This document shows, one piece after another, positions 14,037 through 60,730 of a stretch of 64,000 nt of DNA (position 1 is the first letter of the stretch; each line of letters starts with the position of its first letter). The DNA is from Octopus vulgaris. Lineage: Eukaryota. Both the position numbers and the translations under genes were made by a program. The notes beneath the pieces are model-generated. The model had not been told where the DNA came from. It did not search any database and saw nothing but the letters and a program-made list of their open reading frames with translations. The DNA lies in assembly GCA_951406725.2 (NCBI GenBank), contig OX597839.1, forward strand, positions 17,856,001 through 17,920,000, written 5' to 3'.

Positions 14037-14538
14037 AACTATTAAGGTGACTATTCGCAATTTAGAACCAATAGGCAACAAGTACAGTTATCACTAACGT
14101 GATAGAGGGTGCTAGTAAGCACCAGCACTGCTAGAAATAGGAGTCAAAACAACCTTAACCATGTGAGAGAATTTTTCTAATGGCTGACAAGGGAGACAGG
14201 CTCCCTCCCTAGAACAAGCGAGATGGAGTCATATCACCACTGATTTCAGATTTAATCAATTTTCATCAGTGACCCATTACTCCATTGCCGAGGGTTAAAG
14301 AATCTAAGTCACCTTGTCAGCCTTATATAGAACACCATAGTAAACATTGACTGATTTCAAAAAATGGTGAAGTGAGAATTATAAATTATTAAGGTGGTTA
14401 TTTGTAATTTAGAACCTATAGAGAACAAGTATAGTTGTCGCTAAAGTAACAGAGGATGATAGTAAGCACCAGCATTGCTTGAAATAAGAGTCAAAACAAC
14501 TCTTAGCCATGTGAGAGCACTTTTCTAATGGCTGACAA
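14037..14538 (-). mobile_element. Penelope-like non-autonomous element with partial tandem (pseudo-LTR) repeat
   Basis: A direct repeat of about 150 bp (14037-14190 and 14384-14538) brackets a hammerhead motif, with a TATATAAG box upstream of it on the - strand. Confidence 0.6.
14223..14277 (-). ncRNA. Type I hammerhead ribozyme motif
   Basis: ATGGGTCA CTGATGA AAATTGATTAAATCT GAAA TCAGTGGTGA TA TGACTCCAT. Stem I has 8 bp with a 1-nt bulge, the CUGAUGA/GAAA core is intact, stem III is TCA/TGA, and the cleavage triplet is AUA. Confidence 0.75.
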
Positions 14539-14926
14539 TATATATATATTTCTTTACTACCCACAAGGGGCTAAACATAGAGAGGACAAACAAGGACAGA
14601 CATATGGATTAAGTCGATTATATCGACCCCAGTGCGTAACTGGTACTTTATTTATCGACCCCGAAAGGATGAGAAGCAAAGTCGACCTCGGCGGAATTTG
14701 AACTCAGAACGTAACGACAGATGAAATACCGCTAAGCATTTCACCCGGCGTGCTAACGTTTCTGCCAGATACATATATTGATATTTTGCTTAGGCATAGT
14801 GCTACTAATAGCATGGTGTTAGAACTCTAAATACATATGCTTCAGAATGAAGTGTTAGTCAAGTATAGAGCAGTAATAAGAAATTGGGATAAGAAAGGAA
14901 TAAACAATTACATTACAAGCTTCATT

Positions 14927-15007
14927 AGTTTACAGCTGTTTGGGCTGTAAGGTGCAATGCATTCATAGTTGGATGCTTGAGTATTACTCTATAGCTTCAT
15001 CAAAGCT
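14927..15007 (-). ncRNA. Decayed hammerhead motif (same family as 17537 and 26199)
   Basis: AGCT TTGATGA, long stem II, then AAAA CAGCTG TA AACT; the core is mutated. Confidence 0.45.
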
Positions 15008-15149
15008 CCATCTCCAGGAGGTGCTTCATAATTGTTCATTCCTTTGTGATTCTAATCTTTTATGTATGTGTATGTGTATGTGTGTGTGTGTGTGTGTTCT
15101 GGTTAAAGTACCTGGCACCTTAGACCACTCGGCCATTCTGACAAGCAAG

Positions 15150-15204
15150 ATGGAGTCATATCAGCACTGATTTCAGATTTAATCAATTTTCATCAGTGAC
15201 CCAT
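15150..15204 (-). ncRNA. Type I hammerhead ribozyme motif, second copy of 14223-14277
   Basis: Identical 55-mer except one change in loop III (TCAGTGCTGA). Confidence 0.75.
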
Positions 15205-15681
15205 TACAGTGACCCGGGGGTTAAAGAATCTAAGTGTGTGTGCGTTAGTGTGTACATATTATTAACCACATATTCTTTATGTATTTGCTTTGTTTATTTT
15301 CCAGTGGCTGCAATAGCATGGTGGGAGTACATACACTCTCAGAGCACCAGGTTTTAAAAACATCTCGGGCACGTGAGGTAACTCACTTTCAATCCCGTTT
15401 GGGAGTGATGGACACTGACATTTCATGTGGTTGGTAAACAAGCTACTTACCACACAGCCACTAGTATTTCATTTTAGTATTTCATTTCTCTTTGTTGGTC
15501 TGGTGGAAGGGGCAGAGCCCATGACTTTTGTAAGCCCAATGAGACTGATGCTGAGAAAAGTCTGCTTTAGCTGTTTCAAACTGCCTACAGGGAAGTAAGT
15601 TTTGAGCAGTGAGAGAGTTCTTGATAGCTGACATTTGTGAAGGAAGGACTGAGTGGAGTGGATAATGTAGGGCAGGATTTT

Positions 15682-16074
15682 GTTAAGTTAAGTTAAGTTA
15701 ATTTTTTTGGCTCAAAAAACAAAGAGCAAGGCCATGTAGGGGGACATGGAGTTATGTACAGGGAGGGTGTTCATGCAAAGAGTTCAGGCCATTTCTGGTC
15801 AAGAGAGACTTTGAACTGAGCGGTCGTCGGCATCTTCACTATCTTGTCTGGCAGCTTATTCCACGGATCCGCAACCGGGATGGAGAAAGCCCCTCTCCTT
15901 CGATTGAGATGAAATCGTCGCAGATAGAGCTTTTCGGAGTGACCCCGCAGCCGACGCTCTGGAGCAGGAGTGAAGAACAGCTCTTTCGAGAGGTTACACT
16001 TTCCGCTTATGATGTCATGAGCAAGAATGAGATCACCACGGTGGCGTCGTTTTTCTAGAGAATAAAGGTTGAGC
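15682..16074 (-). mobile_element. CR1-clade LINE 3' fragment
   Basis: The minus strand reads LYSLEKRRHRGDLI...LRGHSEKL...WNKLP, with a (TTAAC)n tail. Confidence 0.8.
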
Positions 16075-16571
16075 GTGAGTGAATGGGTGAGGGAAGGACA
16101 GGCGATTGAGGTAGGAGTGCCTGTATGGAGGTGGCATGAGATTAGTCAGTCAACTTTGTGGTGCAGTAGAAAAAATCAGTAAGAAAGCACAGCTCATGTG
16201 AACCAGAAGATTAAACATGTCTTTGAGTGACATTATACCAGTCAGTTAAGTGACCTCTCTCTGGCTAGTCAAATGATCTCTCTCTCTCTCCCTCCCTCTC
16301 TCATACACAAAAGATAGATTAATTTTAATTGCTTACTGATGTGACCAAATGACTGTGAAGTTCATTATGTAATATGCATTATATAATAGACACAACTATA
16401 TTACTGTTACCATCCATGTCTTCATTCATGATATTTGATTTGTCATCCACAGATTATTGAAACAATTGTAAACCACAGAATAAATGTAATACCAGAAACA
16501 CCATCCTTCGAATATTACATACATATACATATGTACATACACAGACATACACACACACACACATGTATATA

Positions 16572-16650
<79 letters not shown>

Positions 16651-16962
16651 CACACAAACACACATACACACACATATATATATGTGTAACACACAAACAC
16701 ACACACTTACTTGTAAATGATAAAGTTAATTATTTTATTGAATCTTCTCCAACTTCTTGATTATTTTCCAAATTCAAACAAATGAACTGTGTATTCCATT
16801 AGAAACATGATCTTGTTAAGATTTAAATTGTTTGTTCCAACCCCGTGCTATGAGAGCTATACCAATATATTTATGCAAGTGTGTGTGTGTGTGTGTGTAG
16901 ATTGATAGAGATATAAACATACATATTTAGACATATCTTGATTTAAACAAATGTAATATATG

Positions 16963-17053
<91 letters not shown>

Positions 17054-17056
<3 letters not shown>

Positions 17057-17290
17057 GGAAAAGTTTACGAAAAAAAACAAAAGACAAAGACAGGTGGTGT
17101 AGAAAACAAACAGATGTATTCGTATAGCGCTCAGGAATAGAAAAAGTCTTTTACGCTTCGAGCCTATGCTCTTCTACAGAAAGGTACACAGAAAAAAACA
17201 AGGAGAGAAACAAGGAGAGAAAAAAAGGAGAGAAAAAATGTGTGTAGTGGCTAACGATCTATTGTGACGTCTGACTCGGACAAAAAAAAA
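17054..17290 (-). mobile_element. PLE-like short element in a (TA)n tract, carrying a variant hammerhead motif (17148-17183)
   Basis: CTTT CTGTAGA A GAGC ATAG GCTC GAAG CG TA AAAG; stems I and II are intact and two core positions deviate. Confidence 0.5.
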
Positions 17291-17868
17291 AATGGAAAAT
17301 ATATATATATATATATGATTGATTGATTGATTGATTCTAGTTTCAGCTTATGAGCTGTGGCCATGCTGGGGCACCACCATTTGGTGTTGCTACTTGGTTT
17401 CACTTCACGAAAGCTTTCTAGCAACTGCCATTTGGTGCATGAGAGAGTTCGATGCAGCTGCCCTATATATATATATATATTTAAAAGAAATTAGATAAAT
17501 GACAAGGGAATGAGAAATTATGTCCTAAACTTCATTAGCTTACAGCTGTTTCTGCTATAAGATGCAATGTATTGGTAGTTGAGTGCTAGTGTATCAAGCA
17601 ACCTTTCAGATTATAGCCCTTTCCAAGTTAAACTAAAATCTAATACTTGAAACCTTAAAATCTCTTAAAATAAGTTTGTATTTCTGGAGTTTGAATGATT
17701 GCCTGAGTACACACACCATGTTCTACTACCTTATACAACTATCATATTTCCTCAGGCATGAAACTAATAGCAGCTCACATTTAAATCCTGTGTAGATTAA
17801 ATGATATTTATCTCTTACTAGATGGAGAACTTTTTTAGTTTATCCCACCTATAACTGAACAGTACACA

Positions 17869-17899
<31 letters not shown>

Positions 17900-17910
17900 T
17901 GTATGTATGT

Positions 17911-17973
<63 letters not shown>

Positions 17974-18884
17974 CACACACACATACATACACACACACAC
18001 ATATATTCAGTTATTTTTTCGTTTGTCATTGAACTTTGGCCCTGCTGGAGCACTGCTGAAAAGTGCTTTAGTCAATCATTGTAATACTCAGTGCTTTTTT
18101 GTTCTTAAAGTCTGGTCCTTATTTTATTGATGGCTATTTGTCAAACTGTTAACTCATGGTATGTAAACACATGACACTGTTTTTCAAAATATGAAGTGCA
18201 AAGACTGACAACAAAACTAACATGTAAATATATGTACAATGTGTGTGTGTGTGTGTGTGTGTGTGTGTCTATCTGTCTGTTTCAGTGTGTGTGTGTGTGT
18301 ATCTGCGTCTGTACATATGCATGCATGAGCTCTTACATGTGCATCTATATTAGAAGCTATGTACACCTGAGTGCTGGCATAGATGTCGTTACATATATGG
18401 ATCCTATTACATACTGATTTTCTTGAATGTTTTACATTTCATGGCAGTACCTTTGACAGCTTCTACCTGTAATTTTCTGACTAGGTATTTCCTTCCTATT
18501 TTACTGAAACCTAACTTCCAAAGATTAGCAGGGAGCCATAAAGCCAAGTGCTCCAGGAATTATTGGTGGAAATCTAAATCTATTGTTTGGACAGAATAAT
18601 ACAGATTTCTCATCAGTTTGGCAAAGATCTTTTCTTTTTCATTGACCTTTAAATCAGGTTGACATCTGCTGGGGAACTGATTTCAACTTTTGTGCACAGT
18701 GTCTTTTGTCAACCCCAGGTTGTTATGTCTGGTCTATTAGCTTTTATTTTATTGAAATCTTGAGAAGGATGTTCCATCAGTATGCTTTCTTATTATGTAA
18801 GGTTCTGCCCTCCACATTATTGTTACTTCTTAAATTTTCTCCCTGTGATTATCCTTTCAGCAAATTTCATTGTATAATGTACTA

Positions 18885-19169
18885 TATTGTTTGTTCCTTC
18901 AAAAGCCATGCCTGGCTCAGGGCTGGTTTCCCGGCTTCTTGGCGTATAGGTTCCCCACCTGGATGGGACACCGGTCCGTCACAGGAGGAAAGAGTGAGAG
19001 AAAGTTGTGGCGAAAGAATCAGCAGAAGTTTCGCCATTACCTTCTGCCAGAGTCGCGTGGAGCTTAGGTGTTTCGCTCATAAACACACACATCGGCTGTC
19101 CTGTGACTCGAACCCGCGATCCCTCGACTGCGAGTCCACTGCTCTAACCACTAGGCCATGTGCCTCCAC
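18885..19169 (-). mobile_element. SINE family C (tRNA-derived) with 12-bp TSD
   Basis: TSD TATAATGTACTA at 18873-18884 and 19170-19181; A box TGGCCTAGTGG and B box GGTTCGAGTC. Confidence 0.9.
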
Positions 19170-19458
19170 TATAATGTACTAGCCATTATATAATGTCTCC
19201 CTAGATAGAGAATATCATGACGACACCTTCAGGCAGCTACTGATGATAAGGATGACATCATGAATGTAATTTCATAGATCTGCATCAATTGTTACAACAG
19301 GTTTACTTGAATTTCTATCCCTTTTGTATATTTCCTGCCCTTGTATTGCAAAAATAAAAATACGCTGCAAAGTGAGTGCTAATATCTTATTTATTAGTCT
19401 AAGATAGACTGCTCTATTTGTATCAATTATTGTCAAAAATTAATGAACAAACAAACAA

Positions 19459-19491
<33 letters not shown>

Positions 19492-19642
19492 TGTATGTAT
19501 GTATGTATGTATGTATGTACGTACATACGTACATACATACCTACCTACCTAGAATCTCCAGATTCTAACTAATTCTTTTTTTAAAATTTTAATGAAATGA
19601 CACTTCATAATATATCTAATAGATAAGTTACAAGTTAAATCA

Positions 19643-20044
19643 TACTCTCTTTTACTCTTTTACTTGTTTCAGTCATTTGACTGTGGCCATGCTGGAGCAC
19701 CGCCTTCAGTCAAGCAAATCGACCCTGGGACTTCTTTGTAAGCCCAGTACTTATTCTATCGGTTTCTTTTGCCGAACCGCTAAGTGACAGGGACGTAAAC
19801 ACACCAGCATCGGTTGTCAAGCGATGCTAGGGGTACAAACACAGACACACAAACATACACACACACATATATATATACATATATACGACAGGCTTTTTTC
19901 AGTTCCCATCTACCAAATCCACTCACAAGGCATTGGTAGGCCCGAGGCTATAGCAGAAGACACTTGCCCAAGGTGCCACGCAGTGGGACTGAACCTGGAA
20001 CCATGTGGTTGGTAAGCCAGCTACTTATCACTTACCACACAGCC
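19643..20044 (-). mobile_element. SINE family A
   Basis: Reverse-complement match to 13612-14016. Confidence 0.9.
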
Positions 20045-20749: not shown

Positions 20750-21240
20750 TCATTTACTTGTTTCAATCGTTTGACTGCGGCCATGCTGGAGCATCGCTTT
20801 AAAGGGTTTTATTCAAAGAAATTAACCCCAGGAACTTATTCTTTGTAAATCTAGTACTTATTCTGTCAGTCTCTTTTGCCGAACCACCATGTTATAGGGC
20901 GGTATAAACACCAACATCTGTTGTCAAGCAATGGTAGGGGGACAAACACAAACACAAAGACACACACACACATAAATATATATATATATATATACAAAAT
21001 AAGCAACAAGAATATCTTCGGTAATTTGGTATGATCGTTTCACGCTACATCATTTTATTAAGCATTGTAAGTATTACCACAGTTTTAAAATGTTGAGCAA
21101 TCATCAGCCATTTATAGAGATTTTCCATTAATACATATTTTCATATTAATTGATAACATTATAAAGAAGGTAGATATATAGACAGAGATGTCAATTTGAA
21201 TTTTAAGAACATTAAGGTAATAGCATTTATCTTCTAATTC

Positions 21241-21271
<31 letters not shown>

Positions 21272-21438
21272 ATGGGTTTCTTTCAGTTTCTGGCTACCAA
21301 ATCTACTCACAAGGCTTTGGTCAGGTCAGCTTGAGGCTATAATAGAAGACATTTGCTCAAAGTGCCACACAGTGGGACTGAACTTGGAGCCGTGTACTTG
21401 AGAAGCAAGCTTCTTACCACACAGCCACACTTGTTCCT
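20750..21438 (-). mobile_element. SINE family A interrupted by a hammerhead-bearing insert (about 20995-21240) in its (TA)n tract
   Basis: The SINE halves flank an unrelated AT-rich insert. Confidence 0.7.
21027..21110 (-). ncRNA. Partly decayed type I hammerhead motif with extended stem II
   Basis: TGG CTGATGA TTGCTCAACATTTTA...TAAAATGATGTAGCGT GAAA CGATCA TA CCA, with TATAAA immediately upstream. Confidence 0.55.
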
Positions 21439-21657: not shown

Positions 21658-21714
<57 letters not shown>

Positions 21715-21753: not shown

Positions 21754-21785
<32 letters not shown>

Positions 21786-23540: not shown

Positions 23541-26198
23541 ATCTATTTCTTTACTACCCACAGGGGCTATACACAGAGGGGACAAACAAGGACAGTCAAA
23601 CGGATTAAGTCAATTACATCGAACCCAGTGCGTAACTGGTACTTAATTTATCAACACCGAAAGGATGAAAGGTAAAGTCGACCTCGGCAGAATTTGAACT
23701 CAGAACGTAATGCCAGACAAAATACAGCTACGCATTTCGCCCAGTGTGCTAACATTTCTGTCAGCTCACCACCTTATCATGATGGTCATCATCATCATCA
23801 TCATCATCATCCTAGATGGGAACTGAATTATTATGGAAGACAAAGCAAAATCAGATATGATCAGTATTTCATCCCTTGGCATTTCTTAAGTCGACTACAG
23901 ATTTCTTTCCTATAATTTGAGGTCAATTACCTGTGTTTAGAAATCAGCATTTAATAATGTTTTACCATTTTAGTTGCAAGAAAATGAAATCCAAAGTCTG
24001 AGAGAGTAAATCTATAGGATTTTCAATCAGATTTAAATATCATTAGTTTTACTATAATTAGTATAGAGTTAACAATTCTTTCCCAGAGTTGTTTAGAATG
24101 CCATGTAGAATGTCTTGCAGTATTTGTTCTCAGGGTTCAAATCTCACCTAGATCAACTTTCATCTTTTCAGGGTTATTAAATAAAGTACTAATCCAGTCC
24201 AATGCACTGGCAGAATGTTAGATCATCAAAAGAAATGTTTTGTTGTATCTGTTTCTGCTATGTATGGTGTTCAAATCTTGGTTTCTCTCTTGGTTATGTT
24301 TATTTATTTACATTGATTTGAATTAGTCAAACATTACTTTATAGCTTTGAGAATTCGAATGCGTGATTGCTTATTTTAAGAATAATATTGTAGGGGATGT
24401 GTGAAAGGCCGGATCTGGCCAGTTTGAAGATAAAACAGGTAGAATATTTTGGCCAGATATGGCTGGTTTAAGCGCTAAAGGGTTAAGCAAATGTCCAAAT
24501 ATTTTAAATGAATACTGTTGATGCTAGTGAACCAGCTGAGAGGAGAGAATGCAAAGGGGCCACTCTAACCCTGTACACTCTATGAACAATATACATGACA
24601 TATGTGATTGTGTGTGTCACTGTGTGTGTGTGTGTGCATGTTTATATCATGCACCAGATATCAGTGAAGAATGTAAACCTTAACAAAAAGAACTGTTTTT
24701 TAACGAAAGTCCACCAAGTTACCAATACTTTCATGTCCGTCTCAGCATCAGAATTGCCATGAGCCAGCAATTGGTCCACTGGAGATCAACAACCAACACT
24801 TTTGCCCGTAAATGGAGACATACAATAAATTTTTAAAAAGTGCGTATTCGACAGGAACTCTTGCAAGCATATTTGTTCTAAGTAATAAACTGCAGGCATG
24901 CCTGAGTGGTTAAACAGTTTTCTTCACTACCATGCACTTTTGGGTTCAGTCCCAATTCACAGCACCTTAGGTAAATGCATTCTACTATAGTGCTTGGCCA
25001 ACCAATACCTTGTGAGTGAATTTGGAAGATGCAAACTGCTGAAGCCCTTCATGTATGCATCTGTGTGTACCACTGAGTCTCCCCAAATTAGAAATTATTA
25101 ATTAAATATCATCCTAGCTTAATAAGATTAAAGACAAGCATGTCATATCAATATATGTCATAATACAAACAACAAAACCTCCATGAACCTTGAACTCTTT
25201 AATATGTTCAACCTTACAAGACATAAAAGATTCATAGACAACAGGCATATATGAATATATTCTCATCATCAGCTGCTTCATGGATATCACTATGGTTTTG
25301 AAATTTGGTTTCTGTGTGTGTATATATATATACACACACACACATACACATGCGCACACACACACATACAGAAAATAAAGGAATTCTTGAATGCATGATG
25401 GCTGTGAAGACAGCTTAGAAAATAGGGCAAATGCCCTTTAAAAGATGGGGAAAAGTGACCAGCAACCTCTACAGAGAATTGGGACCACTTTCTTTTCATC
25501 CTCTAAAGGGTATTTTGTCCTATTTTCTAACCTGTCTTCACAGCCATCCTGTGTTCAAGAATTCCTTTATTTTCTGTACAATACTGACTGACTCAGTGCT
25601 TATAAGTGTGTGTGTGTGTGTGTGCCCCACCCCACCACATGAGAACCAGTGTTTGTTTATGCACATATTTGTACCTCAGTAGTTCAGTATAACAGACCAA
25701 TAGCATTCATACCAGACTTTAAAAAAAAAATATACTGGAGCTGATTTGTTCAGTTAAAACCCTTCAAGGTGGTGCCCCAACATGACCACAGTCCAATGAT
25801 GTAAAAAGTAAAAGATTAAAAAATGTATGAAAAGAATGTTCGGTAGCACTACAAGCCAGTTGGTAGAAAAATATAATTTATACATTATATCTTACTCTTA
25901 AACTGTTTTAAAGCTAAAACTGCTTGTGAGGTTCAAAAAGAAAGTTTATAGATAAGAAAAAGAAAATTTCTTCCAATTAGGTGATAAAAGATGAGTACAA
26001 CTTAATAGGTTGATTTTAAATTCTATCATCAAAATTCTCACAGCTGGTGTTGTTTCTTTCCCCTTGACTGATGACACATGAAGATAAAAATGCAAACAGA
26101 GCTAAACAGGCTTCTATATAATGCCAAAGCATATATATATATATATATATATGTGTGTGTATATGAAAATGAGATGACAACTAAATATGAACTTCATT

Positions 26199-26277
26199 AG
26201 CTTCATTGTTTCTGCTATAAGATGCTGCAGACTGATAGATAAGTGCCTGAGTAACACCTTATAACTTCATCAGAGCC
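26199..26277 (-). ncRNA. Hammerhead motif with long stem II in a PLE-like repeat (about 26165-26365)
   Basis: GGCT CTGATGA AGTTATAAGGTG...CATCTTATAGCA GAAA. Stem III is damaged here but intact (CAGCTG TA AGCT) in the copy at 17537. Confidence 0.55.
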
Positions 26278-26365
26278 TCATCTATGAAGTACTCAACTAA
26301 CATTCCATTCGGAAGCATATGTAGATTGAGTTCTACACCAGGTTACTAGTCTCACAATGCCTAAA

Positions 26366-26412
<47 letters not shown>

Positions 26413-26487
26413 AGAGTAAACACATAAATGTGAAGCAAGGTGGAAAAAAGAGTACTCAAATGCCAGGGGTAGAGTAATATGCCTTAC

Positions 26488-26622
26488 TTAAAAGCAGCAG
26501 AAATTTAACAAAAGCTGTTACTTGGAGTTTCACATTCCCATTCGTCGGACAACAAAACTGTCTGACGAACGGGAACGTGAAACTCCGAGTAACAGCTTTT
26601 GTTAAATTTCTGCTGCTTTTAA
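26488..26622. repeat. Near-perfect palindrome: 64-bp arms, 7-nt loop, 4 mismatches
   Basis: 26488-26551 is the reverse complement of 26559-26622. Confidence 0.95.
26558..26595 (+). ncRNA. Minimal type I hammerhead ribozyme, intact
   Basis: CTGT CTGACGA ACG-GGAA-CGT GAAA CTCCGAG TA ACAG. Stem I has 4 bp, stem II is GNRA-capped, and GUA cleavage is predicted after 26591. Confidence 0.85.
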
Positions 26623-27267
26623 ATAAAGTATATATATTTATATACATATACCTATCATTTGTTTCAGTCATAGGACTACAGCCATGCTAGGGCACTGCTT
26701 TCATGGGTCTTAGTTGAACAACTTGAATCCAGTACTTAATTTTTTCATAGCCTGGTACTTATTCTCTTGGTTTCGTATTTTAAACCACTAAGTTATAGGG
26801 ATATAAACAAACCAACACCTTTTGTCAAGTGGTGTAGGGGAGAGGACAAACAGACACAAAGATGCACCACACAAATATAAATGTGTGTGTGTGCTTATAT
26901 GTGTGTGTATTGTGTGTATGTGTATTTATATATATACACACACTTGATGGGCTTCATGCAGTTTCCTTCTACCAAATTCACTCACATATCATTGGTCATC
27001 CCAGAGCTATATTAGGATACATTTGCTCATGGTACTGTACAGTGGGACTGAACCAAAATCCACCTGGTTGCAAAGTGAACTTCTTAACCACACAGCCATG
27101 CCTGTGCCTATATATTTATACATATATATTTTTTTTCTTTTATGAATTACAAGTTGCTTGTTCAACATTATGTCTTTTTACTTTGATCACCCTAACAAAG
27201 TAAACCTGAAACATGATATTAGTTAGAATTCAATGCAGCATCCCAGTCTTCCTTGTTGTTTTTACAG

Positions 27268-31790: not shown

Positions 31791-32407
31791 AGTATACGAC
31801 ACCTGTGATATCCCCCACTAAGCACAGATAGTAACATTTCTAGGGCATAGTCCTGGTTTGGGACTGGATTCTCCTTTTTCACTGGGTGCTAACCATTGTT
31901 GTTCTCATTCTATATGAATCTAGAAAACTTGCTTTTCATCATTTGTGATGATTCTGTATACCAAACGGTTCAGTAGCAAGTCTACTCTTTAATGACAAGC
32001 AAGGGGCAACTCTGAATTAAGCTGAGAAGCACTTATATGATGAGGGACACACTGGCTAAGTTTAGACCCTCTTCTCACTTCACGAAGGTGTTCTTTTGTA
32101 AATTTTCATGCAGTTTGCTAATGGATTTTCCTCAACTATTAGTTTCAAAAGCCCAATATTGACAGAACTTCATGGTCTAGGTCAAGGGAATCTGTGAAAG
32201 AAAAATTTCCCAAGTGAAACTATCCAAACCGTCATTCATAAGTCCAGACGCTTAAAGCTTCATTTCTATGGAGAGAATATCATTTCTCACCACTTCCATT
32301 GCTGAAGAGCTCCTTTTGAATTCATACAGCATACAGTGTCTGATATGGGTATGATCTAAGCTCATTTTCAACATGTAAAATTGATATGAATTTAACCACT
32401 CTGGTAG

Positions 32408-34250
32408 ATGAGATGAGATGAAGTTCGGTTTTGTGCCGGGTAGAAGCACCACTGATGCTATATTCCTGGTCCGACAACTGCAGGAGAAGTACCTAGCTAA
32501 AGATAAACCCCTCTACATAGCTTTTGTGGACTTGGAGAAAGCCTTTGACAGAATTCCCCGTTCCCTTATCTGGTGGTCGATGCGGAAACTGGAGATTGAT
32601 GAATGGCTAATAAGGGCTGTACAGGCTCTATACAGAGAGGCTGTCAGCAAGGTTAGGATTGGCAATGAGTGTAGTGAAGAATTCCGGGTAGAAGTAGCTG
32701 TGCACCAAGGCTCAGCCCTCAGTCCCCTTTTATTCATCATAGTCCTCCAGGCAATAACAGAGGAATTCAAAACAGGATGCCCCTGAGAGCTCCTCTATGC
32801 TGATGACCTGGCTCTCATAGCAGTTATAGTAAGCAGAAAGGCGAACTCAGCACCCCCCCCCTCGGGCAGGTGGCCCTGCTCGATGTGTAGGAAAGGTGTA
32901 GGTAGAAACTCCATAAGATGCACCCAATGTAAGCTATGCACGCACAAGAGGTGCAGCAACATTAAAGGGAAATTAACAGATAAGATAGCTTTCATGTGCG
33001 GCAGATGCACAGGGACAATAGACACCACAGACACTCAGAAAACAGATTCCATCACACTCCAGGGAGAGAAACTAGAAGTAGTTGATAGTTTCCGCTACCT
33101 GGGTGACCAAATTAGTAGTGGAGGTGGATGCACAGAGAGTATCACCACTAGAATACGAATAGCCTGGGCAAAGTTCATAAAGCTCCTACCCCTACTGGCG
33201 ACAAAGGGTCTCTCGCTCAGAGCGAAAGGTAGATTGTATGATGCATGTGTGCGAACTGCCATACTTCACGGTAGTGAAACATGGGCTGTGACTGCAGAGG
33301 ACATGCGTAGACTTGAAAGAAATGAAGCTAGCATGATCCGCTGGATGTGTAATGTCAGTGTGCACGCACGACAGAGTGTAAGCACCCTGAGAGAAATGCT
33401 GGATATAAGAAGCATCAGATGTGGTGTGCAAGAGCGACGCTTGCAATGGTATTGTCATGTGCTGCGGTTGGATGAGGAGAGATGTGTGAAGAAGTGCCAC
33501 TCCCAAACAGTTGAAGGTATCAGGGGGAGAGGTAGACCCAGGAAGACATGGGATGAGGTAGTCAAGCATGACCTCAGAGCATTGGGCCTCACTGAGGCAA
33601 TGGCGAAGGACCGAAATCTCTGGAGATATGCTGTGACTGCAAAGACCCGAGCTGCTTCCTGCATCAGTTCCGCATAGCCCCTGCCCATTCAAAGTACCCC
33701 GGTTCCCAGAACGTCCCGCTGTGCTTGAGGAGACCTGTTGAGTCAAGTACATGAACATGAACGTCGAAATAAATATCAATGGAAATAGTAGTTGTGATGC
33801 CTGTGCTGGTGGCACATAAAAAGCACTATCCGAACGTGGTCAATGCCAGCACCGCCCCGACTGGCTTCTGTGCCGGTGGCACATAAAAAGCACCATCCGA
33901 ACGTGGCCGATGCCAGCGCCGCTCCGACTGGCTCCTGTGCTGGTGGCACATAAAAAGACCATCCGAACGTTGCCAGCGCCGCCTTGGCTGGCTTCCGTGC
34001 CGCTGGCACATTAAAAGCTCCAACTGATCGTGGCCGATGCCGGACCCCCCCTGGCACCTGTGCAGGTGGCACGTAAAAAGTACCCACTACACTCGCGGAG
34101 TGGTTGGCGTTAGGAAGGGCATCCAGCTGTAGAAACTCTGCCAGATCAGACTGGAGCCTGGAGCAGCCCCTGGCTTCCCAGACCCCGGTCGAACCGTCCA
34201 ACCCATGCTAGCGCGGAAAACGGATGTTAAACGATGATGATGATGATGAT
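32408..34250 (+). mobile_element. 5'-truncated RTE-clade LINE (RT remnant, tandem-repeat 3'UTR, (GAT)n tail)
   Basis: Motifs FGFVPGRSTTDAIF, FVDLEKAFD, HQGSALSPLLF, LYADD, FRYLG, GSETW and RGRGRPRKTW. It has a stop at 32784-32786 and an internal deletion after YADD, so it is non-functional. Confidence 0.95.
33800..34085 (+). repeat. Tandem repeats of about 60 bp (about 5 copies) in the RTE 3'UTR
   Basis: Unit resembles GTGCCGGTGGCACATAAAAAGCACCATCCGAACGTGGCCGATGCCAGCGCCG. Confidence 0.85.
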
Positions 34251-48013: not shown

Positions 48014-48682
48014 TGTTTATATAAAAATAAACTGGAAGTCCTTTGCTTATGATAATGAATATTTCAGTTGATCTGATCAATGGAACAGATTGCTCATGAG
48101 ATTAACATGCAAGTGGTTGAGTACTCCACAGACACGTCTACCCCTTCACATACTTCTCAGGGAGATTCAGCATGACACAGAGTGTGACAAGGCTCGCCGC
48201 TTGAAATACAGGTACAACTCACTTTTGCCAGCTGAGTGGACTGGAGCAGTTTGAAATAAAGTGTCTTCCTCAAAGACATATATAAAGGTAAGATCCAAGA
48301 ATCCAGGTGTAGTAAGAAGTCCGTGGAAGGTATAAAAAACAATTTTCAGGAATAATAGTGGTTTATCGACTTAGAAGGTTGTAAATTTTTCCCATATCGA
48401 AAATTGATAAGCTGAAAAAAAGGTTATTTTATAGTTCACAGTTAGCAACCGGAGTTGCTGTGTATGTGAATAAAAATCCAGATTAAGGGAATAGAGCAGG
48501 TAAAATCCAGGCTACATATGTTTCCTAGCTAACAGAACCTCAGAAGTAGTAATTACTCAATGAGGGGCACTCCACTAGCTACTCATCAAGCCAAAGATTC
48601 CTTAATCAAATGAAGGTTACATGTAGCCTGGATTTTACTTTCTCCATTCCCTAAATTTGGATTTATATGTATATTAAAGTAA

Positions 48683-48768
48683 AGACCCTGAAGAAATTGC
48701 ACCGGTGTTTTAGTAGGGTTGCAGTTGCAACAGTTACTAATCGATGCAGTTGAAACATGTGTAGGTCT
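48683..48768 (+). ncRNA. Type I hammerhead ribozyme with long stem II, intact core
   Basis: AGACC CTGAAGA AATTGCA...TGCAGTT GAAA CATGTG TA GGTCT. It has a palindromic ACATGT in stem III, and GUA cleavage is predicted after 48763. Confidence 0.85.
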
Positions 48769-48854
48769 ATGTAAAGTTGTATATATAGAAAAGAATTAAA
48801 GGTAATGCTATGCTACTTCGTAATATTCCTTATTATTAATATATATTCGTTGAT

Positions 48855-51466: not shown

Positions 51467-52195
51467 ACTTGCCTACTTACAATGAAATTTCAGTTTTAAA
51501 GCGTTGAAGTGCAGTAGAGGTTAGCAACAGTGCTATTTTGCACTAAACTTTATGTGAAATAATTTCCTATGAAAACTAATAATTAACAAGCAATTGAGGA
51601 GGGATCTTATATGTCATGGGTGGGGAACCATTTTTACTACCTGGTGGTGGTGGTGTTTGGGTTGGGGGTAAATTATAAGTGCACAAGAACCTGTGATGGG
51701 GGTGGGTGGTGGCACATTTGCGTTGAGAAGAATGATGACTCATTAATTTTACAAATTCATAGGTTCTACTCCTTCTATTTCTGTTACTGCTCCTCCTCCT
51801 CCTCCTCCTCCTCCTCCAGTTGTTTTGTGTTGTAGTCATCAGCAGCTGCTATCTTCTTGAGTTTGCATGGGTTCTTTTCTCTTTTTCTTTTTTTTTTCTT
51901 TTTTGTTTCTGGTTAATAGTCTGTGAGGCTGTTAAAGTGTCACAGAAAAGAATCACAAGACAGATTCTACAAGCTGAGTCAATCAGCCGGAGTCTTAAGG
52001 GTAGACCAAGAATTAGATGGCCGGATAATATCCGTAGTCTCGGTTGGTCATGCTTGGGAATCCAGTCAGTAATAACAGTTATTTCTGATAACACCCTAGG
52101 AAGGAGATGCCTATAGACTCTACCCCCATGACCCTATCAGATTTTCTTGTTAAAATTTATGTGCAATAAATTAGTTATATTTCTGCAATGCCCAT

Positions 52196-52416
52196 GGGCA
52201 TATGGCGTAGTGGTTAAGAGCATGGGCTACTAACCCCAAGATTCCGAGTTCAATTCCAAGCAGTGACCTGAATAATAATAATAACAACAATAACATCGAA
52301 AAATACCTTAGGAATGAGAACCCAAGTTCGAGGTTTCCCCAAGACACCTGATGAAGGTTGGAGGGTATATCAGTTGAAACGTTATGTTAATAACAAACAA
52401 GATGAGGACAAATATC
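52196..52416 (+). mobile_element. tRNA-headed SINE-like element ending in a hammerhead-like motif (52343-52388)
   Basis: A box TGGCGTAGTGG (52203-52213), B box GTTCAATTC (52248-52256), an (AAT)n spacer, then GACAC CTGATGA A GGTTG-GAGGGTATAT-CAGTT GAAA CG TT ATGTT. Confidence 0.65.
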
Positions 52417-53228
52417 CATCATCATCATTGTTTAACATTCGCTCTCCATGCTAGCATGGGTTGGACGATTTGACTGAGGGCTGACGAACCAAATGGCTGC
52501 ACCAGATAGCTGCACCAGGCTCCAATCTTGATCTGACAGAGTTTCTACAGCTGGATGCCCTTCCTAGTGCCAACCACTCCGAGAGTGTAGTAGGTGCTTT
52601 TACAAGACACCGGCACGAGGGCCAATCAGACAGTACTGGCAATGACCTTGCTTGAATCTTTTTACACATGCCACCAGCACAGGTGCCAGTAAGGTGATGC
52701 TGGTAACGATTATGCTCAAGTGGTGCCTTTTCATGCCACCGGCACAGAAGTCAGTTAGCCACTTTGGCAATGATCACACTCGGATGGTGCTCTTAGCACC
52801 CTACTAGCATGGGGCACAAGTGCCAGTAAGGTGACGCTGGTAACGATCACACTCGAATGGTGCCTTTTATGTGCCACTGGCATAGAAGCCGGTTAGCCGC
52901 TCTGTTAACGATCACCCTCATATGGTGCTCTTTGCACCCAGCTAGCACGGATGTCAGTCATCGAATTTGATTTTGATTTCACTTGCCTCAACAGGTCTTT
53001 GCAAGCAGAGTTTAGTGTCCAAAGAAGGAAACTGTATGCATAAGTGGGCTGGTTACGCCCCTGGCATAAGCCATGAGGTTATGGTCTCATTTGGTTTGCC
53101 GGCTCTTCTCAAGCACAGCATATTTCCAAAAGTCTCAGTCACTTGTCATTTCCTTGGTGAGGCCTAAAGTTCGAAGGTCGTGCTTCACCACTTCATCCCA
53201 GGTCTTCCTGAGTCTACCTCTTCCACAG
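52417..53228 (-). mobile_element. RTE LINE 3' portion (ORF end GRLRKTWDEVVKHDLR, repeat-rich 3'UTR)
   Basis: Homologous to 33530-34250 but with a different 3'UTR repeat unit; a similar copy lies at 55772-56175. Confidence 0.85.
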
Positions 53229-55036: not shown

Positions 55037-55093
<57 letters not shown>

Positions 55094-55201
55094 ACTCTCT
55101 CTTCAAACACATCAGCACACAGATACGTGTGTGTGTGTATATATTCATATACATGCATGCATATGCATATATATATGTGTGTGTATGTATATATATATAA
55201 A

Positions 55202-55250
<49 letters not shown>

Positions 55251-55260
55251 ATATATATAC

Positions 55261-55292
<32 letters not shown>

Positions 55293-56615
55293 TCAGAGAT
55301 GTGTGTGTGTGTAAGCATGTGTGCAAATATGTATGTATCTTTGTATGTTCTTTTTTTCTTTTTAATTTGGAGATAATTTTCATCATCTGCTTGCTTGGTT
55401 GCAAGGTTGCAAAGGAAAGTATCTTCTTTTATGTATCAGCCATTAAATCTTTAGAAGGTCTTGCAGATTTTTATTGTTCCAGTTATCACTATCATTTGTA
55501 GCACGTGAATTAAGAAGTTGCATTCTGTCACAAACACCCTAAATTCAGCCATATCAATAGTATGTATGTTTGTATGTATATATAGGTATGTTAGGTTTTT
55601 CGCTTGTTTGTTTTGGACGCAATCTGTTCAGAAAATAATTTGAGATCCACCCCTCCGCAGCTTTGCGTCTATGATGTTTATATCATCACATCCCTCCCAT
55701 ACTCATTTCAGGTATAGGTCCTCTGTTGACATCACATAAAATACTTAACACATTTCTAAGGTGTATACTAATCATCATCATCATTTAATGTCTGTTTTCC
55801 ATGTTAGCATGGGTTGGGCGATTTTGACTAAGGGCTGGCAACCAGATGGCTGCACCAGGCTCGTCTTGATCTGGCAGAGTTTCTACAGCTGGATGCCATT
55901 CCTAATGCCAACCACTCCGAGAGTGTAGTGGGTGCTTTTTACGTGCCACTTGCACGGGGGCCTGTCAGGCGGTACTGGCAATGACCTCACTCGAATCTTT
56001 TTACACGTGCCACCAGCACAGGTGCCAGTGAAGCGACATTGGTAACGATCACGCTCGAATGGTGCCCTTTTACGTGCCACGGGTACAGAAGTCAGTTGGC
56101 TGCTCTAGCAACGATCATGCTCGGATGGTGCTCTTGGCACCCTACTAGCATAGGCACAAGTGCCAGTAACGATCATAAGTTAGAAATCTTTTACAACTGA
56201 CACAGAAATGATGGAAACAGTGGGCTCTCTCAGTGTGGAAGATCTCATTAAGTACTGTATATGGTGGGTTTATCTTGTCATCAATATTGATTTCAGCTTT
56301 CAAAATTGATTACTTTATGGAGACATAGTTCTTGAAAATTGTCCCCAACACAAGACAAGATAAAGATATAATGATATCATACAAAAAAAAAATAAAATAA
56401 ACTTACATCCTTGAACATCAACATAATTCATTATTTAATGAAAACTGTATATTAGTTATCAGTGTGTCTTATATTGCATTTCATACTACCTAACACTGAA
56501 GTCTTGTTATGTTTCGTGTAATCTCAAATAGCCTTACCCAAAATGGAGGCAGATTACCAACATTTTTAAGCGAAAGATTTGATGATTTCATTGTTATCAC
56601 ATGAAACCAATGGCA
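53999..56615. repeat. Long-range inverted repeat pair (53999-54133 / 56481-56615)
   Basis: 135-bp arms with 3 mismatches and a 2.35-kb spacer. Confidence 0.95.
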
Positions 56616-56717
56616 GCATGGTAAATCCACAAATAAAGAATAGCTTTATCCACCCAATGCAGTGTTAAATACTCAATCTTTGTTTGCCACAACCGTGTGT
56701 ATATATATATGTATATA

Positions 56718-57232
56718 TTCGGTTATCCCATAAATAATGCAATTGTTTTATACTTCTTTTATTTTTCAAAGTTCTTTTTTAATCTAAAATATACATGCCT
56801 TCATTTTCCACAATAGTCTTTCATCTATCTGGTAGACTTGCAAGGCCCCTCTTCCAAAATTCACTTGTCCATGATGAAAAATACTCCTGCAGTACTGTTA
56901 TGACCTCGTCTACAGAATTCATATTTTTTCCGTCCAAATGATTTTGAAGACTGCGGAATAAATGATAATCAGATGGAGCAATTCCTGGCAAGTATGGTGG
57001 GTGGGGCTTCATTTCCCAGTCAAACTGTTCCAGTCTTTGGAATGTCATCGTTGCTGTATATGTGGCCAAGCATTATCCTGATGGAAGAACACCTTTCATC
57101 TTGAAACCAAAGATGGTCGTTTTTCTTCTAGTGCTGGCTTAAGCTTCTCACAGTATATCTCCTTTGTTATTGTTTGGTTTGGGTTTAAAAGTTCAAAGGG
57201 GACTAAACCCACCAAACAGATAAACAACACTT
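56718..57232 (-). mobile_element. Mariner transposon 3' fragment (transposase C-terminus)
   Basis: FHQDNAWPH and PHPPYLPGIAPSDYHLFRSLQNHL (the YSPDLAPSD motif region); TIR TA|TTCGGTTATCCCAT. Confidence 0.9.
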
Positions 57233-59079
57233 CTTAACCACTAGGTGTGCGGCCTAGAGGCTGGGGAGTTGGACTCACGATCATGAGATTGTGGTTTCAA
57301 TTCCTAGATCAGGTGATATGTTGTGTTCTGTAACAAAACACTTCATCTTACATTGCTTTGCAATCACTTTGACACCTGGTGCATCTGTTCAGACAATTTC
57401 GATGTGATAGAGAGAATGAGCTAATATACAGCACATACGTTTGATCATTATAAAAAATCCTTTGCACAGGTCTTTCAACAGAAGCTGAGCACATACATGG
57501 TTGCATATAATGGATTTTATTTAGCTGAGTGGCTTTGCTATGCTGGTGATTGTTTATTCACTGTTTCCATATATATTGGTGATGATAGATTTTGATGAAG
57601 CATGTTGGCTCTGAGTACACATTGATAATACCCAACACAGCAGACATGTATCTAACATCTCTCTGATACATACAGTTCATTTTTTTCAAACAGTGCATCC
57701 ATAGGGGATATTATCTCTGGACCAATATGTAGCAAATTTTTCCTATTTGGGTGGTGTGGATTATATTATGCATGACGCATATATACATATTTCTTTACTA
57801 CCCACAAGGGGCTAAACATAGAGGGGACAAACAAGGACAGACAAACGGATTAAGTTGATTACATCGACCCCAGTGCATCACTGGTACTTAATTTATTGAC
57901 CCCGAAAGGATGAAAGGTAAAGTCGACCTTTGCAGAATTTGAACTCAGAACGTAACGGCAGACGAAATACCGCTAAGCATTTTGCCGGCGTGCTAACGTT
58001 TCTGCCAGTATATATGCATAATGCATATATACAAAATTGATTCTGTTGCAAGTGTGGCTGTGTGGTAAGAAGCTTGCTTCCCAAACCACATGTTTCCAGG
58101 TTCAGTCCCACTTTGTGGCACCTTTGGCAAGTGTTTTTTACTATAGCCCTGGTCTGACCAAACCCTTGTGAATGAATTTGATCAGCTCTGTAGATTTAGA
58201 AACTAAGAAAAGCCTGTCATATTATGTGCGTGTTTGTTCCCCACTTCCACTTGGCAACTAGTGTCAGTTTGTTTATGTCCCCATAATTTAGAGGACCAGC
58301 AAAAGAGACTAATAGAATAAGTATCTGGTTTACAAATTAAGTGCTGAGGTTAGTATGTTGAATTAAACCCTTCCAGGTGGTACCCCAGCATGGCCACAGT
58401 CCAATGACTGAAACAAGTAAAAGATAACGAACTGCCACCAAAACTGTTGAAGAACTTGAAGAACTTGTTGATGAAAAACATTCCTATATCTTCTGCGAGA
58501 AATTAAGTGAAATTTCTTGGTGCATGCATCATTTTCTGATAAACAAACTACCACAAATTGCAATCCTAATTTTGGATTTAAATCATACAACTGTCTCTCC
58601 ACCACTATATTGCTTCATCTGTTTACAGAGGAACTATTTCTACTAATTAAAAATAAAAAAAATTCTGGGAAATCACAATTGCTATCAGATGAAATTAAAT
58701 AACAATCTGTACAAAATATAAAAAAAAAAAATTGTATTTTATTCAATTTGCCAAAGCAAAAAATTTACACAAAATCAAGCATAATACCTATCAACATTGT
58801 ATTTCTAATTCCATTGCTAATAATTATTATATGAAAGTAGACAACATATTAGAAATGAAATAAACTCAAAAAGACAGAAAACTAACAAACTGAACATAGA
58901 TGACAAAAGTAAATCACTTTTGCTACAGATTCCATAGTTTACTCTCAATGACCACAAAACAAATTTCCAAACTCTATTTGTTTCATTAACCCTACCAAAA
59001 CTGACATTTGTAAAAATTAATGAAAACACATTAGTGAGAATAATTCCTATAATCAAATTAATTTTGCCATTTTTTCATA

Positions 59080-59451
59080 TCTTGGGAGGTTCATTATGCT
59101 AATAATAAATACATACACTGATTCTATTCACTTCTTTATTTTTCATTTATCATTTTGATTAAATATTTAATTATTTAACCAATTAACTCATCAATTGTTT
59201 GATGGGTCATTTATTCAATTAATCGATCAATGAGGTTTATCAATGTCTTTTCATTGCTATCCATGACTTGATCGATGATGTTTTCTCTACTCCAGGTCTG
59301 ATTCAGGTCTCTGAATTATTGATTGAGTTAATGAGTAATTAATTTAATTGATTAATTAACTGGTTAAAGATTCAAGCAAATAGCAAAAAAAGCAGTGAAA
59401 TAGAACCAGTGTGTGTGTGTGATTAATATTGGCATTATGAACCTCCCAAGA
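59080..59451. repeat. AT-rich foldback / MITE-like element
   Basis: Imperfect TIRs of about 55 bp (59080-59132 / 59394-59451: TCTTGGGAGGTTCAT...ATGAACCTCCCAAGA). Confidence 0.7.
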
Positions 59452-59606
59452 CAATAAAATATGTTTCAGCATGTAAGTTCACATCAGAAGTTTTGCAAAC
59501 CAAATACAAAATGAAACGTTTCATCATTACCTCTGTCAAATAACACACAAAACATGATAGGGTTGTTTAGAAACATTCGCAGAAAAAAGAAAGAAAAATA
59601 AGCAAT

Positions 59607-59993
59607 AGGTGCAGGAGTGGCTGTGTGGTAAGTAGCTTGCTTACCAACCACATGGTTCTGGGTTCAGTCCCACTGCGTGGCACCTTGGGCAAGTGTCTTC
59701 TTATAGCCTCAGGCTGACAAAAGTCTTGTGAGTGGATTTGGTAGACGGAAACTGAAAGAAGCCCGTCGTATATATGTACATGTGTGTGTGTGTCTGTGTT
59801 TGTCCCCCCAACATCGCTTGACAACTGATGCTGGTGTGTTTACATCCCTGTAACTTAGCGGTTCAGCAAAAGAGACCGATAGAATAAGTACTAGGCTTAC
59901 AAAGAATAAGTCCTGGGGTCGATTTGCTCGACTAAAGGCGGTGCTCCAGCATGGCCACAGCCAAATGACTGAAACAAGTAAAAGAGTAAAGAG
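59607..59993 (+). mobile_element. Full-length SINE family A
   Basis: Near-identical to 2827-3243. Confidence 0.9.
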
Positions 59994-60432
59994 CAAATTG
60001 TTCATAATTGAACATCCAGGAATGCTATTCTTATATCTTCCAAACTCTTTACTTATGAATACTTTGAATTTGCAAGATCATTTACTCTGCTTATGAATAC
60101 AAATATGACAGAAATTCTAATGCTCTCCTTCAGTAATGTTTTTTGGATTAAAAAGTATTGAAAATCCTTTTTGCTGAGATTAGGGATTTGGTGAGATTAT
60201 CTTTTATCTATTCTGTTTTACTTGTTTCAGTCATTGGACTGCTGCCATACTGGGGCATTACCTTGAAGGGTTTTTTGTTGAAAAAAATCAACACAAGCAC
60301 CTTTTTTTTCAAAGTTTGGTATATTTTGTGTTAGTCTCTTTTACCAAACTGCTAAGTTACAGAGATGTAAACAAACCAACACCAATTGTCAGGCAATGGA
60401 AGCAGGGAAAAAAACACAGACGTGTATGTATT

Positions 60433-60480
<48 letters not shown>

Positions 60481-60648
60481 TTGATAGATAGATAATGATT
60501 CTGTATTTTGGTACCAAGGGACACAACTCTTAACTCAATCTTCTGCTTGAGATTCGTTTCATCTTTTTCACAGCAACCACAAACCATATGTATTTATGTA
60601 CCTCCATCAATAGAGAGCGGTCATTATATTTCATTCCATAACAGAGCT

Positions 60649-60730
60649 ACCTCTGATGAGTGCAGGTTACATAATCAAATTGTTACCTAACACTCCATTG
60701 AACCCCTAGTGTGAAACCAATTGGTAAGGT
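60649..60730 (+). ncRNA. Type I hammerhead ribozyme with palindromic stem III
   Basis: ACCT CTGATGA GTGCAGG...CCTAGTGT GAAA CCAATTGG TA AGGT. GUA cleavage is predicted after 60726; stem II is wobble-rich. Confidence 0.75.

Follow-up and report, generated by a model that had tools for sequence, protein, structure and literature searches.

What are the hammerhead ribozymes that recur along a repeat-rich stretch of the Octopus vulgaris genome, and what moved them there? The stretch, which we call the window, comprises 64,000 nucleotides of contig OX597839.1 (assembly GCA_951406725.2, positions 17,856,001 to 17,920,000); it has 36% G+C, is rich in microsatellites, and at least half of it is repeat. 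A preliminary description of its sequence had listed about ten type I hammerhead motifs and read them as a dense layer of non-coding, retrozyme-like derivatives of Penelope-like elements (PLEs), mobilized in trans, whose intact copies could cut host pre-mRNAs. The scattering of hammerheads by PLEs in animal genomes has been known since 2014, and the hammerhead layer itself is known biology. Comparing the window with related copies elsewhere in this 2.8-Gb genome, we consider it very likely that the hammerheads are marks of the 3' ends of PLEs, with five families representing truncated coding copies and two representing short non-coding passengers that likely use the same enzyme in trans. We also think it probable that the genome holds a lineage of short interspersed elements (SINEs) driven by a PLE enzyme, with a tRNA-derived RNA polymerase III (Pol III) head, a PLE hammerhead/tail end, about 30,000 copies, and at least one older sister, beside an active coding PLE lineage with a fixed A-to-U change at core position 6 (A6U).

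All ten listed sites and the mirror copy of one of them could be located, at most about 10 nt from where they had been placed. Each site was used to collect 17-24 other genomic copies (188 to 3,439 first-look candidates per family, 40 of them scored), and profiles made from these copies, with the window copies excluded, define 12 hammerhead-bearing repeats of eight families in the window (Table 1). We name the families after their sites: 15150 (including site 14223), 26199 (including sites 14927 and 17529), 26558 (including the mirror), 17148, 21027, 48683, 52343, and 60649. One of the repeats, a 26199 fragment at 17529-17596 (-), had been overlooked. A descriptor that checks the core and three stems finds 5 motifs in the window compared to 0.10 +/- 0.36 (maximum 2) in 100 block-wise dinucleotide shuffles, a loose version finds 7 compared to 1.2, and a strict version finds 2 compared to 0.02, all three versions having been composed once the sites were already known. 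The bare CUGANGA box shows no enrichment in the window (40 versus 29, with a shuffle maximum of 43). The core CUGANGA/GAAA/NUH, in type I order, is the canonical majority in six of the eight families, and stems I, II, and III are pairable in all family majorities, with stem I being merely 3-4 bp in 21027, 26199, 26558, and 17148 and weak in 60649. As first described, then, the motifs are real, they belong to several families that share a core and differ in their stems, and all four palindromes named for stem III are present in the window.

Most window copies are nevertheless damaged: the strict descriptor is passed by just 2 of the 12, 48688+ and 60653+. The family majorities restore what these copies have lost, including stem II in 15150, the core boxes and palindrome in 26199, the palindrome in 21027, and stem I in 52343. 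It follows that the hammerheads of the source elements, as reconstructed from their descendants, were well formed, and that what remains of them in the window is mostly decayed. Core positions deviate from the majority in 25 of 1,234 cases compared to 480 of 11,457 at other non-CpG positions, a difference of little weight given that the copies were chosen by likeness to the window. Folding z-scores are weak for nine window copies (-2.3 to +1.0). An Rfam scan of the window gave no hammerhead family among the 150 of 246 matches listed, which are dominated by microsatellites, and the output of a repeat finder consists mainly of microsatellites and other SINEs.

The longer genomic copies indicate where these ends come from. 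In line with the preliminary description, which saw no such ORF, neither tblastn nor three protein profiles detect a fragment of a PLE reverse transcriptase (RT) or GIY-YIG endonuclease in the window. In longer copies of five families, a GIY-YIG open reading frame (ORF) lies upstream of the hammerhead in the sense orientation. For 48683, the shared upstream sequence is a GIY-YIG C-terminus in 11 of 19 loci, with 110-230 nt between its end and the motif; moreover, several of the 40 loci that we read for related endonucleases (11,525 candidates) have related hammerheads downstream. The endonuclease lies about 1 kb upstream in 6 of 12 long copies of 21027 and about 1.3 kb upstream in 11 of 14 long copies of 26558, with the hammerhead on the same locus in six, and for 60649 it was reached in the longest locus, L062 (1 of 19 loci). 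In these four families, the upstream walk got as far as the end of the endonuclease. For 17148, it reached a GIY-YIG ORF in locus L192, whose endonuclease has at least 150 copies at 93-100% identity. Downstream of the ORF, all 20 loci selected for long frames (606-853 aa, RT plus GIY-YIG) have a hammerhead that is a sister form of the one in 17148; identity to the window copy amounts to 89% for L192 and 77-88% for the 20 long-ORF loci. The ORFs of this lineage match RVT_1 (E 4e-7) and, weakly, GIY-YIG (E 0.09), and their homologues have PF00078, PF26215, and PF01541. By their linker motif, we take the octopus PLEs to be Neptune-type, a clade label based on motifs and not on a tree.

Because longer genomic copies run upstream into a GIY-YIG ORF, five of the eight families are, on the copies compared, ordinary 5'-truncated insertions of coding PLEs and not non-coding retrozymes. 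The proposed link between the hammerheads and PLEs is thus borne out. The view that the repeats are non-coding and mobilized in trans fails for these five families and fits 15150 (both of its sites, 14223 and 15150) and 52343. Two points weigh against a general assignment to coding elements: the link of 60649 to an ORF depends on a single locus, and 26199 has no such link, showing PLE marks (ends, tail, and inversion) with no ORF reached.

The ends of the copies show a further common pattern. At the 3' side of copies of the coding families, there are two discrete ends, one 35-40 nt past the cut site and one after an extra tail of 70-80 nt, followed by (TA)n. An optional tail is found in 6 of 18 loci for 26558, 7 of 18 for 21027, and 8 of 30 for 52343, is also present in 26199 and 60649, and was not seen among 18 loci of 17148. 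The 5' ends are ragged and often fused to an inverted partial copy; inverted 5'-truncated copies and partial tandems occur at 26411-26630 in the window, in 13 of 30 loci of 52343, and in examples from other families. Tails, inverted 5'-truncated copies, and microsatellite neighbors are marks described for PLEs (PMC8557442).

Other PLE fragments turned up alongside these families. A Nematis-like ORF beside the 21027 loci L148 and L158 was rejected as their parent; a (TA)n tract separates the two, the strands are opposite, and the ORF has a 3' end of its own. We presume the name Nematis-like from motifs rather than from a tree. Fragments of this kind are present at L148:1930-3127 (-) and in L158, L331, and L112, and the 3' end in L148 has, by eye, a hammerhead-like motif in which the last letter of the first box is changed. 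Another family is represented, in the genome sample described below, by the 5'-truncated PLE at L300:3500-4950 (-), whose RT frame has 351 codons and which has a GIY-YIG end. Long copies of 26558 are over-represented on contig C16, which has 14 of the 40 best matches.

Two families depart from the canonical core. In 17148, the first box reads CUGUAGA (A6U) in 17 of 17 nearest copies, and U6 is found in 19 of the 20 long-ORF sister loci (one was not parsed). Genome-wide, the exact 17148 motif occurs 14,295 times with U6, 143 times with A6, and 0 times with the control (U6 = 99%); the exact pattern fixes the other core letters and so counts only such copies. Among these matches, N7 is represented by all four bases and H17 by A or U. 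Families related to 17148 retain A6. In 26558, the majority box is CCGACGA (U4C; 10 of 17 copies), even though the query had U4, and the canonical-looking copy in the window is likely a product of CpG decay. Relatives of 17148 in an 800-kb genome sample also include U4C (four matches: L100, L281, L304, and L310) and A6C (two matches: L124 and L307). A6C hammerheads are reported to cleave at <0.1 per min, and a U4C hammerhead in a viroid is weak in vitro yet viable (PMC3088659). The literature searched holds no data on A6U; we predict that this change slows self-cutting in a young coding lineage.

Family 52343 is a single element of 230-260 bp that consists of a fold-back hairpin, a tRNA-like head, an (AAT/AAC)n linker, and a minimal hammerhead; it stops either some 55 nt beyond the cut site or after an optional 30-nt tail. 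When the genome was searched with the head only (1,912 candidates), the ribozyme module was found downstream in 29 of 30 loci, the window included; the hairpin is present in 24. The hammerhead module is the inverted upstream piece in the 13 loci mentioned above, and in 5 more it is part of the head or of the tail. At the 3' end, none of the 30 loci has a run of 10 A, and PLE-type ends take the place of the poly(A) typical of long interspersed elements (LINEs). The A box is at +8 and the B box 43 nt further, as in a tRNA, and the head aligns end to end with tRNA-Arg(TCT) from the same genome (z 7.2, 0 of 300 shuffles, 30 tRNA loci). Head-to-tail pairs occur, and there is a 9-unit headless tandem array at C2:2.73 Mb. 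An exact 35-nt piece has 3,142 occurrences, and 9 profile matches in 800 kb suggest about 30,000 copies. These features indicate that 52343 is likely a SINE moved by a Penelope enzyme. At L272:150-560 (-), there is an older sister with a 5' hairpin, an A/B-box-like head, a different linker, and a related hammerhead plus tail, present as a single copy among the loci examined.

Several observations weigh against this assignment. The head aligns almost as well with tRNA-Cys (z 6.8), leaving the parent tRNA uncertain, and it yields no Rfam tRNA match and no ARAGORN call; nor does Rfam match a hammerhead on two SINE loci. No coding partner was found: 40 diverged endonuclease loci read downstream for the 52343 module showed no link, a search via an odd upstream flank gave nothing, and an exclusion pattern returned 186 matches, most of them resembling internally deleted SINE copies. 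Finally, in three raw RNA runs from one study, 87-88% of the reads on the SINE copy continue into unlike flanks, indicating that they come mainly from longer host transcripts.

In the second non-coding family, 15150, a single type I hammerhead is contained in a unit of 348 bp, within the 170-400 nt size range of retrozymes, and no ORF is linked to it in 20 loci. Terminal redundancy is present in the window copy (158 bp) and in 5 of 18 other loci. There is no full dimer in the 20 loci, the window copy having 1.45 units. Endonuclease matches near 15150 were considered as a linked ORF and discarded as unrelated, given that the one in L031 is antisense and the one in L033 is not continuous. We conclude that 15150 is a retrozyme-like non-coding passenger, likely using the PLE enzyme in trans. 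A separate young tandem array at L086:2100-4760 (C1 near 20.003 Mb) has a 359-bp GC-rich unit, (TA)n flanks, and seven identical canonical hammerheads (five forward and two inverted), which makes it a typical retrozyme with a PLE-type inversion. No reads cover its hammerhead in the three RNA runs; one contig set of uncertain type covers it and joins unit to unit, and tandem DNA and circles cannot be told apart there.

Do the window's ribozymes cut the transcripts that contain them? The same three runs have 5,083-6,914 reads on the SINE copy per 11.5-12.9 million, equally in both directions. Because the reads run on into the flanks, the 52343 element is mostly a passenger in host transcripts. 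Read starts or ends do not pile up on the SINE copy in these runs, although fragmented cDNA is a weak test of cleavage. The 5' ends of genomic copies also fail to cluster at the cut site (35 ends), giving no sign of cleavage. In an anole PLE, there were likewise no RNA-seq ends at the cleavage site, the purified hammerhead, the sole one of its kind from a PLE, requires its protein for cleavage, and catalytic mutants still insert (PMC11167929). The suggestion that intact copies cleave host pre-mRNAs thus finds no support: most copies are decayed single motifs with a palindromic stem III, reads cross the site, no cleavage ends accumulate on 52343, and the purified ribozyme needs a protein partner.

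To estimate abundance, we sampled contigs C1-C30 at 80 round coordinates, taking 10 kb at each; the places were picked by hand and not at random. In these 800 kb, the strict descriptor finds 26 canonical-core matches in 18 stretches (7 in one tandem array) compared to 0.25 in 8 shuffles, and 14 more with variant cores (8 A6U, 4 U4C, and 2 A6C, with 0-0.4 in shuffles); a U4A/G control gives 0. Scaled up, this corresponds to approximately 70,000-90,000 canonical and 50,000 variant motifs genome-wide. The eight family profiles have 42 matches in 30 of the 80 stretches, or about 150,000 when scaled to the genome. The window has 2 strict matches compared to 2.1 expected per 64 kb, and 12 profile matches compared to 3.4 expected, eight of the 12 being present by construction. 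We therefore estimate that the octopus genome has on the order of 10^5 hammerhead motifs and that the window is not unusually rich in intact ones; the layer is dense, as claimed, across the genome as a whole and not as a peculiarity of this locus. The sample contains at least eight additional hammerhead families that are absent from the window, mostly with a palindromic stem III (e.g., L087, L095, L110, L288, L302, L314, and L316).

How well do other explanations account for these data? That the motifs are chance matches in AT-rich repeats has practically no probability left. The CUGANGA box by itself is not enriched and the folding of nine window copies is unremarkable, but the shuffle controls already refute the idea (5 versus 0.1 and 2 versus 0.02 in the window; 26 versus 0.25 in 800 kb), and eight families with differing stems have a common core placed equally relative to the 3' end. 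The proposal of the preliminary description, that all families are non-coding retrozymes moved in trans and that intact copies cut read-through host pre-mRNAs, we regard as very improbable. The 348-bp unit, terminally redundant both in the window and at 5 of 18 other loci, together with the 359-bp array in L086 and its seven identical hammerheads, would fit it; two window copies pass the strict descriptor, and inverted and tandem pairs could dimerize. Five families, however, run into GIY-YIG ORFs, 10 of 12 window copies fail the strict descriptor, read ends do not pile up on the SINE in the three fragmented-cDNA runs (the weak test described above), and 8 of 9 tested Xenopus retrozyme dimers remained uncleaved (bioRxiv 10.64898/2026.07.22.740005).

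A further reading has 52343 driven by a LINE, such that the element is a tRNA head with an (AAT)n tail into which a PLE fragment has inserted, or one that has the hammerhead as a passenger while being moved by a LINE of the RTE type. Such tails also stand behind other repeats in L016, L024, L322, and L328, headless copies exist (including the 9-unit array), and no PLE partner came to light. We think this unlikely, given that the same module sits in the same place in 29 of 30 heads, that head and module occur together in inverted duplicates, that the 3' end has the PLE-type two-end pattern with an optional 30-nt tail and not a simple repeat, and that the older sister in L272 shares the hairpin-head-hammerhead-tail plan; movement by a Penelope enzyme remains our preferred reading of 52343. 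Doubt of another kind attaches to catalysis in the 17148 lineage. The A6U hammerhead could be a natural variant that retains full activity because tertiary contacts or the PLE protein make up for the changed base, with cleavage still part of the cycle, a possibility that we take seriously while judging it somewhat doubtful. The rest of the core is strictly conserved in this lineage, which weighs against loss of activity in that it could equally mean that cleavage persists: the other core positions are fixed in 14,295 copies, N7 and H17 are free as an active core allows, U6 is present in 19 of 20 long-ORF loci, and natural core variants such as the viroid U4C can stay biologically active (PMC3088659). 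On the other hand, the fixed letters are imposed by the search pattern (the 800-kb sample agrees but is small), A6C is slow (<0.1 per min; PMC3088659), and catalysis is dispensable for insertion in vitro (PMC11167929). We continue to predict slowed self-cutting for A6U.

These data are consistent with a mechanism modeled on the anole PLE, for which binding, nicking of AT-rich DNA, and internal initiation have been established (PMC11167929). By this analogy, we infer binding, cleavage, and transposition in the octopus families. The PLE protein would bind its own RNA at the hammerhead region, nick DNA that is rich in AT, and begin to reverse transcribe from either of two positions shortly downstream of the ribozyme. 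Internal initiation would yield the two sharp 3' ends, the optional tail, the (TA)n neighbors, the ragged 5' ends, and the inverted 5' duplicates observed in the copies. Copying would begin downstream of the ribozyme and usually stop early, so that the ribozyme is retained more often than any other part; because copies extend past the cut site, the templates must have been uncleaved. Inserted copies would then decay. Cleavage probably needs a dimer or a protein, and we therefore predict little activity from solitary dispersed copies when they are part of host transcripts. Pol III would transcribe the SINE with the help of the A and B boxes, and the RNA would be recognized via the hammerhead-and-tail end and mobilized in trans, with fold-back priming as a candidate origin of both the 5' hairpin and the inversions. 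In the A6U lineage, the fold was likely kept for protein binding, with at most slow, assisted cleavage, and protein-assisted cleavage would be dispensable for insertion.

Table 1 Hammerhead-bearing repeats in the 64,000-nt window.
Feature	Position	Strand	Details
Family 15150, retrozyme-like copy, 1.45 units of 348-bp repeat	14033..14538	-	158-bp terminal direct repeat; (TA)n both sides; core at 14269; predicted cut after 14232; stem II A-C mismatch
Family 26199, copy with tail	14769..15008	-	Both core boxes mutated (UUGAUGA at 15003, CAAA); dead
Family 15150, fragment	15139..15235	-	Core at 15196 intact; predicted cut after 15159; same stem II mismatch
Family 17148, 5'-truncated 3' end of coding PLE	17054..17283	-	Core CUGUAGA at 17179 (A6U, family-wide) and private GAAG; ends in (TA)n
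Family 26199, fragment without first core box	17480..17596	-	
Family 21027, 5'-truncated 3' UTR (untranslated region) of coding PLE	20994..21238	-	Core at 21107 intact; 3-bp stem I; palindrome decayed at a CpG; (TA)n both sides
Family 26199, copy with inverted tail piece upstream	26163..26367	-	Core at 26273 intact; stem III and cleavage triplet damaged by 2-nt deletion
Family 26558, inverted 5'-truncated copy with 72-nt tail	26411..26551	-	Core CCGACGA (U4C)
Family 26558, 3' end of coding PLE	26552..26630	+	Core CUGACGA at 26562; predicted cut after 26591; without tail, ends in (TA)n
Family 48683, 3' end of coding PLE	48671..48845	+	Truncated about 17 nt before core; core at 48688; predicted cut after 48763; passes strict descriptor
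Family 52343, 10-nt fold-back hairpin at 5' end	52190..52199	+	In 24/30 head loci
Family 52343, tRNA-derived head	52196..52270	+	A box at 52203; B box at 52246
Family 52343, (AAT/AAC)n linker and minimal hammerhead module	52271..52420	+	Core at 52348; predicted cut after 52383; stem I pair next to cleavage site broken; 3' end missing
Family 60649, 3' UTR end of likely coding PLE	60506..60770	+	Core at 60653; predicted cut after 60726; passes strict descriptor

The remainder of the window holds other repeats. The 15150 copy gives way at 15096-15140 (-) to a short piece that is absent from the other loci examined and resembles the 5' part of a tRNA, presumably tRNA-Leu. A fragment of a mariner transposase helix-turn-helix domain (Pfam HTH_48, E 1.7e-6) lies at 32255-32512 (-), and a 296-aa frame at 32787-33674 (+) has weak zinc-finger matches in Pfam; from its look, we take this frame to be the end of a LINE RT. 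More dispersed repeats of 100-300 bp, with 4-10 copies each, are probably common octopus SINEs. In a search for host exons, 26 + 4 window ORFs compared with Pfam gave just the mariner domain and the weak zinc-finger-like matches.

What would these elements add to the biology of PLEs? The genome offers two natural experiments on what PLE hammerheads are for; in the sole biochemical study, cleavage is protein-assisted and dispensable for insertion (PMC11167929). The 52343 element has little beyond a hammerhead end yet carries every PLE insertion mark, which points to the hammerhead region as the recognition signal and makes the element a minimal test substrate. If 52343 is indeed a PLE-driven SINE, then the hammerhead region would be a portable signal through which a PLE enzyme could copy any RNA, and PLEs would join the known drivers of SINEs. 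Similarly, the young coding A6U lineage, with U6 in 99% of exact copies, offers a natural test of whether catalysis matters in vivo. Octopus PLEs are annotated in PMC13282606, where the portion available mentions no ribozymes. Term look-ups in PMC4758252, PMC10886601, and PMC5786205 returned neither octopus PLE hammerheads nor a PLE-driven SINE, and neither is reported in the literature searched, which included few subscription journals. Repbase, Dfam, the library and supplement of PMC13282606, preprint tables, Lunse 2017, Arkhipova 2017, and Ohshima and Okada 1994 may already contain these families.

The octopus families resemble several known systems. Like endonuclease-bearing (EN+) PLEs, they have the order RT, cysteine linker, GIY-YIG with a hammerhead near the 3' end, and an optional tail, inverted 5'-truncated copies, and microsatellite neighbors; the tails of 26558 and 21027 differ in being 70-80 nt compared to the 30-40 nt described (PMC8557442, PMC11167929). 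As in the PLE hammerheads of PMC4209133, the type I core lies in a 3' repeat with a short stem I and a palindromic stem III, 17148 and 52343 have an unpaired base between 9 and 10.1 with G10.1-C11.1, and each genome has many families, mainly as single truncated copies with some opposite-strand pairs. The minimal hammerheads in that study showed no cleavage as monomers and low cleavage as dimers. A U3-A8 variant is reported there, whereas lineage-wide A6U and U4C, as in octopus, are not among the variants in the portion available. The abundance also differs, with about 10^5 motifs estimated in octopus compared to about 4,000 in coelacanth and 9,000 in Xenopus (PMC4209133). Non-LTR (long terminal repeat) retrozymes share the unit plan and more-than-unit-length copies of 15150 (PMC7229834, bioRxiv 10.64898/2026.07.22.740005). 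The preprint argues that they derive from PLE repeats and defines active retrozymes by two tandem hammerheads, an arrangement that no window copy has.

For 52343, the closest comparisons are tRNA-headed elements. In 1994, Ohshima and Okada reportedly described the octopus tRNA-derived SINEs OK, OR1, and OR2, which we liken by title only and among which 52343 may be included. The schistosome Sm-alpha element shares with 52343 a tRNA-derived, Pol III-type head followed by a type I hammerhead, and tens of thousands of copies (PMC2770079, PMC6765202); no partner enzyme is named for it in the available portions of these papers. Sm-alpha has a canonical, efficiently cleaving hammerhead in tandem repeats, whereas the hammerhead of 52343 is minimal, PLE-type, and mostly dispersed. 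Unlike Sm-alpha as described there, 52343 bears the marks of PLE insertion: the tail, the inverted 5' duplicate, and the fold-back.

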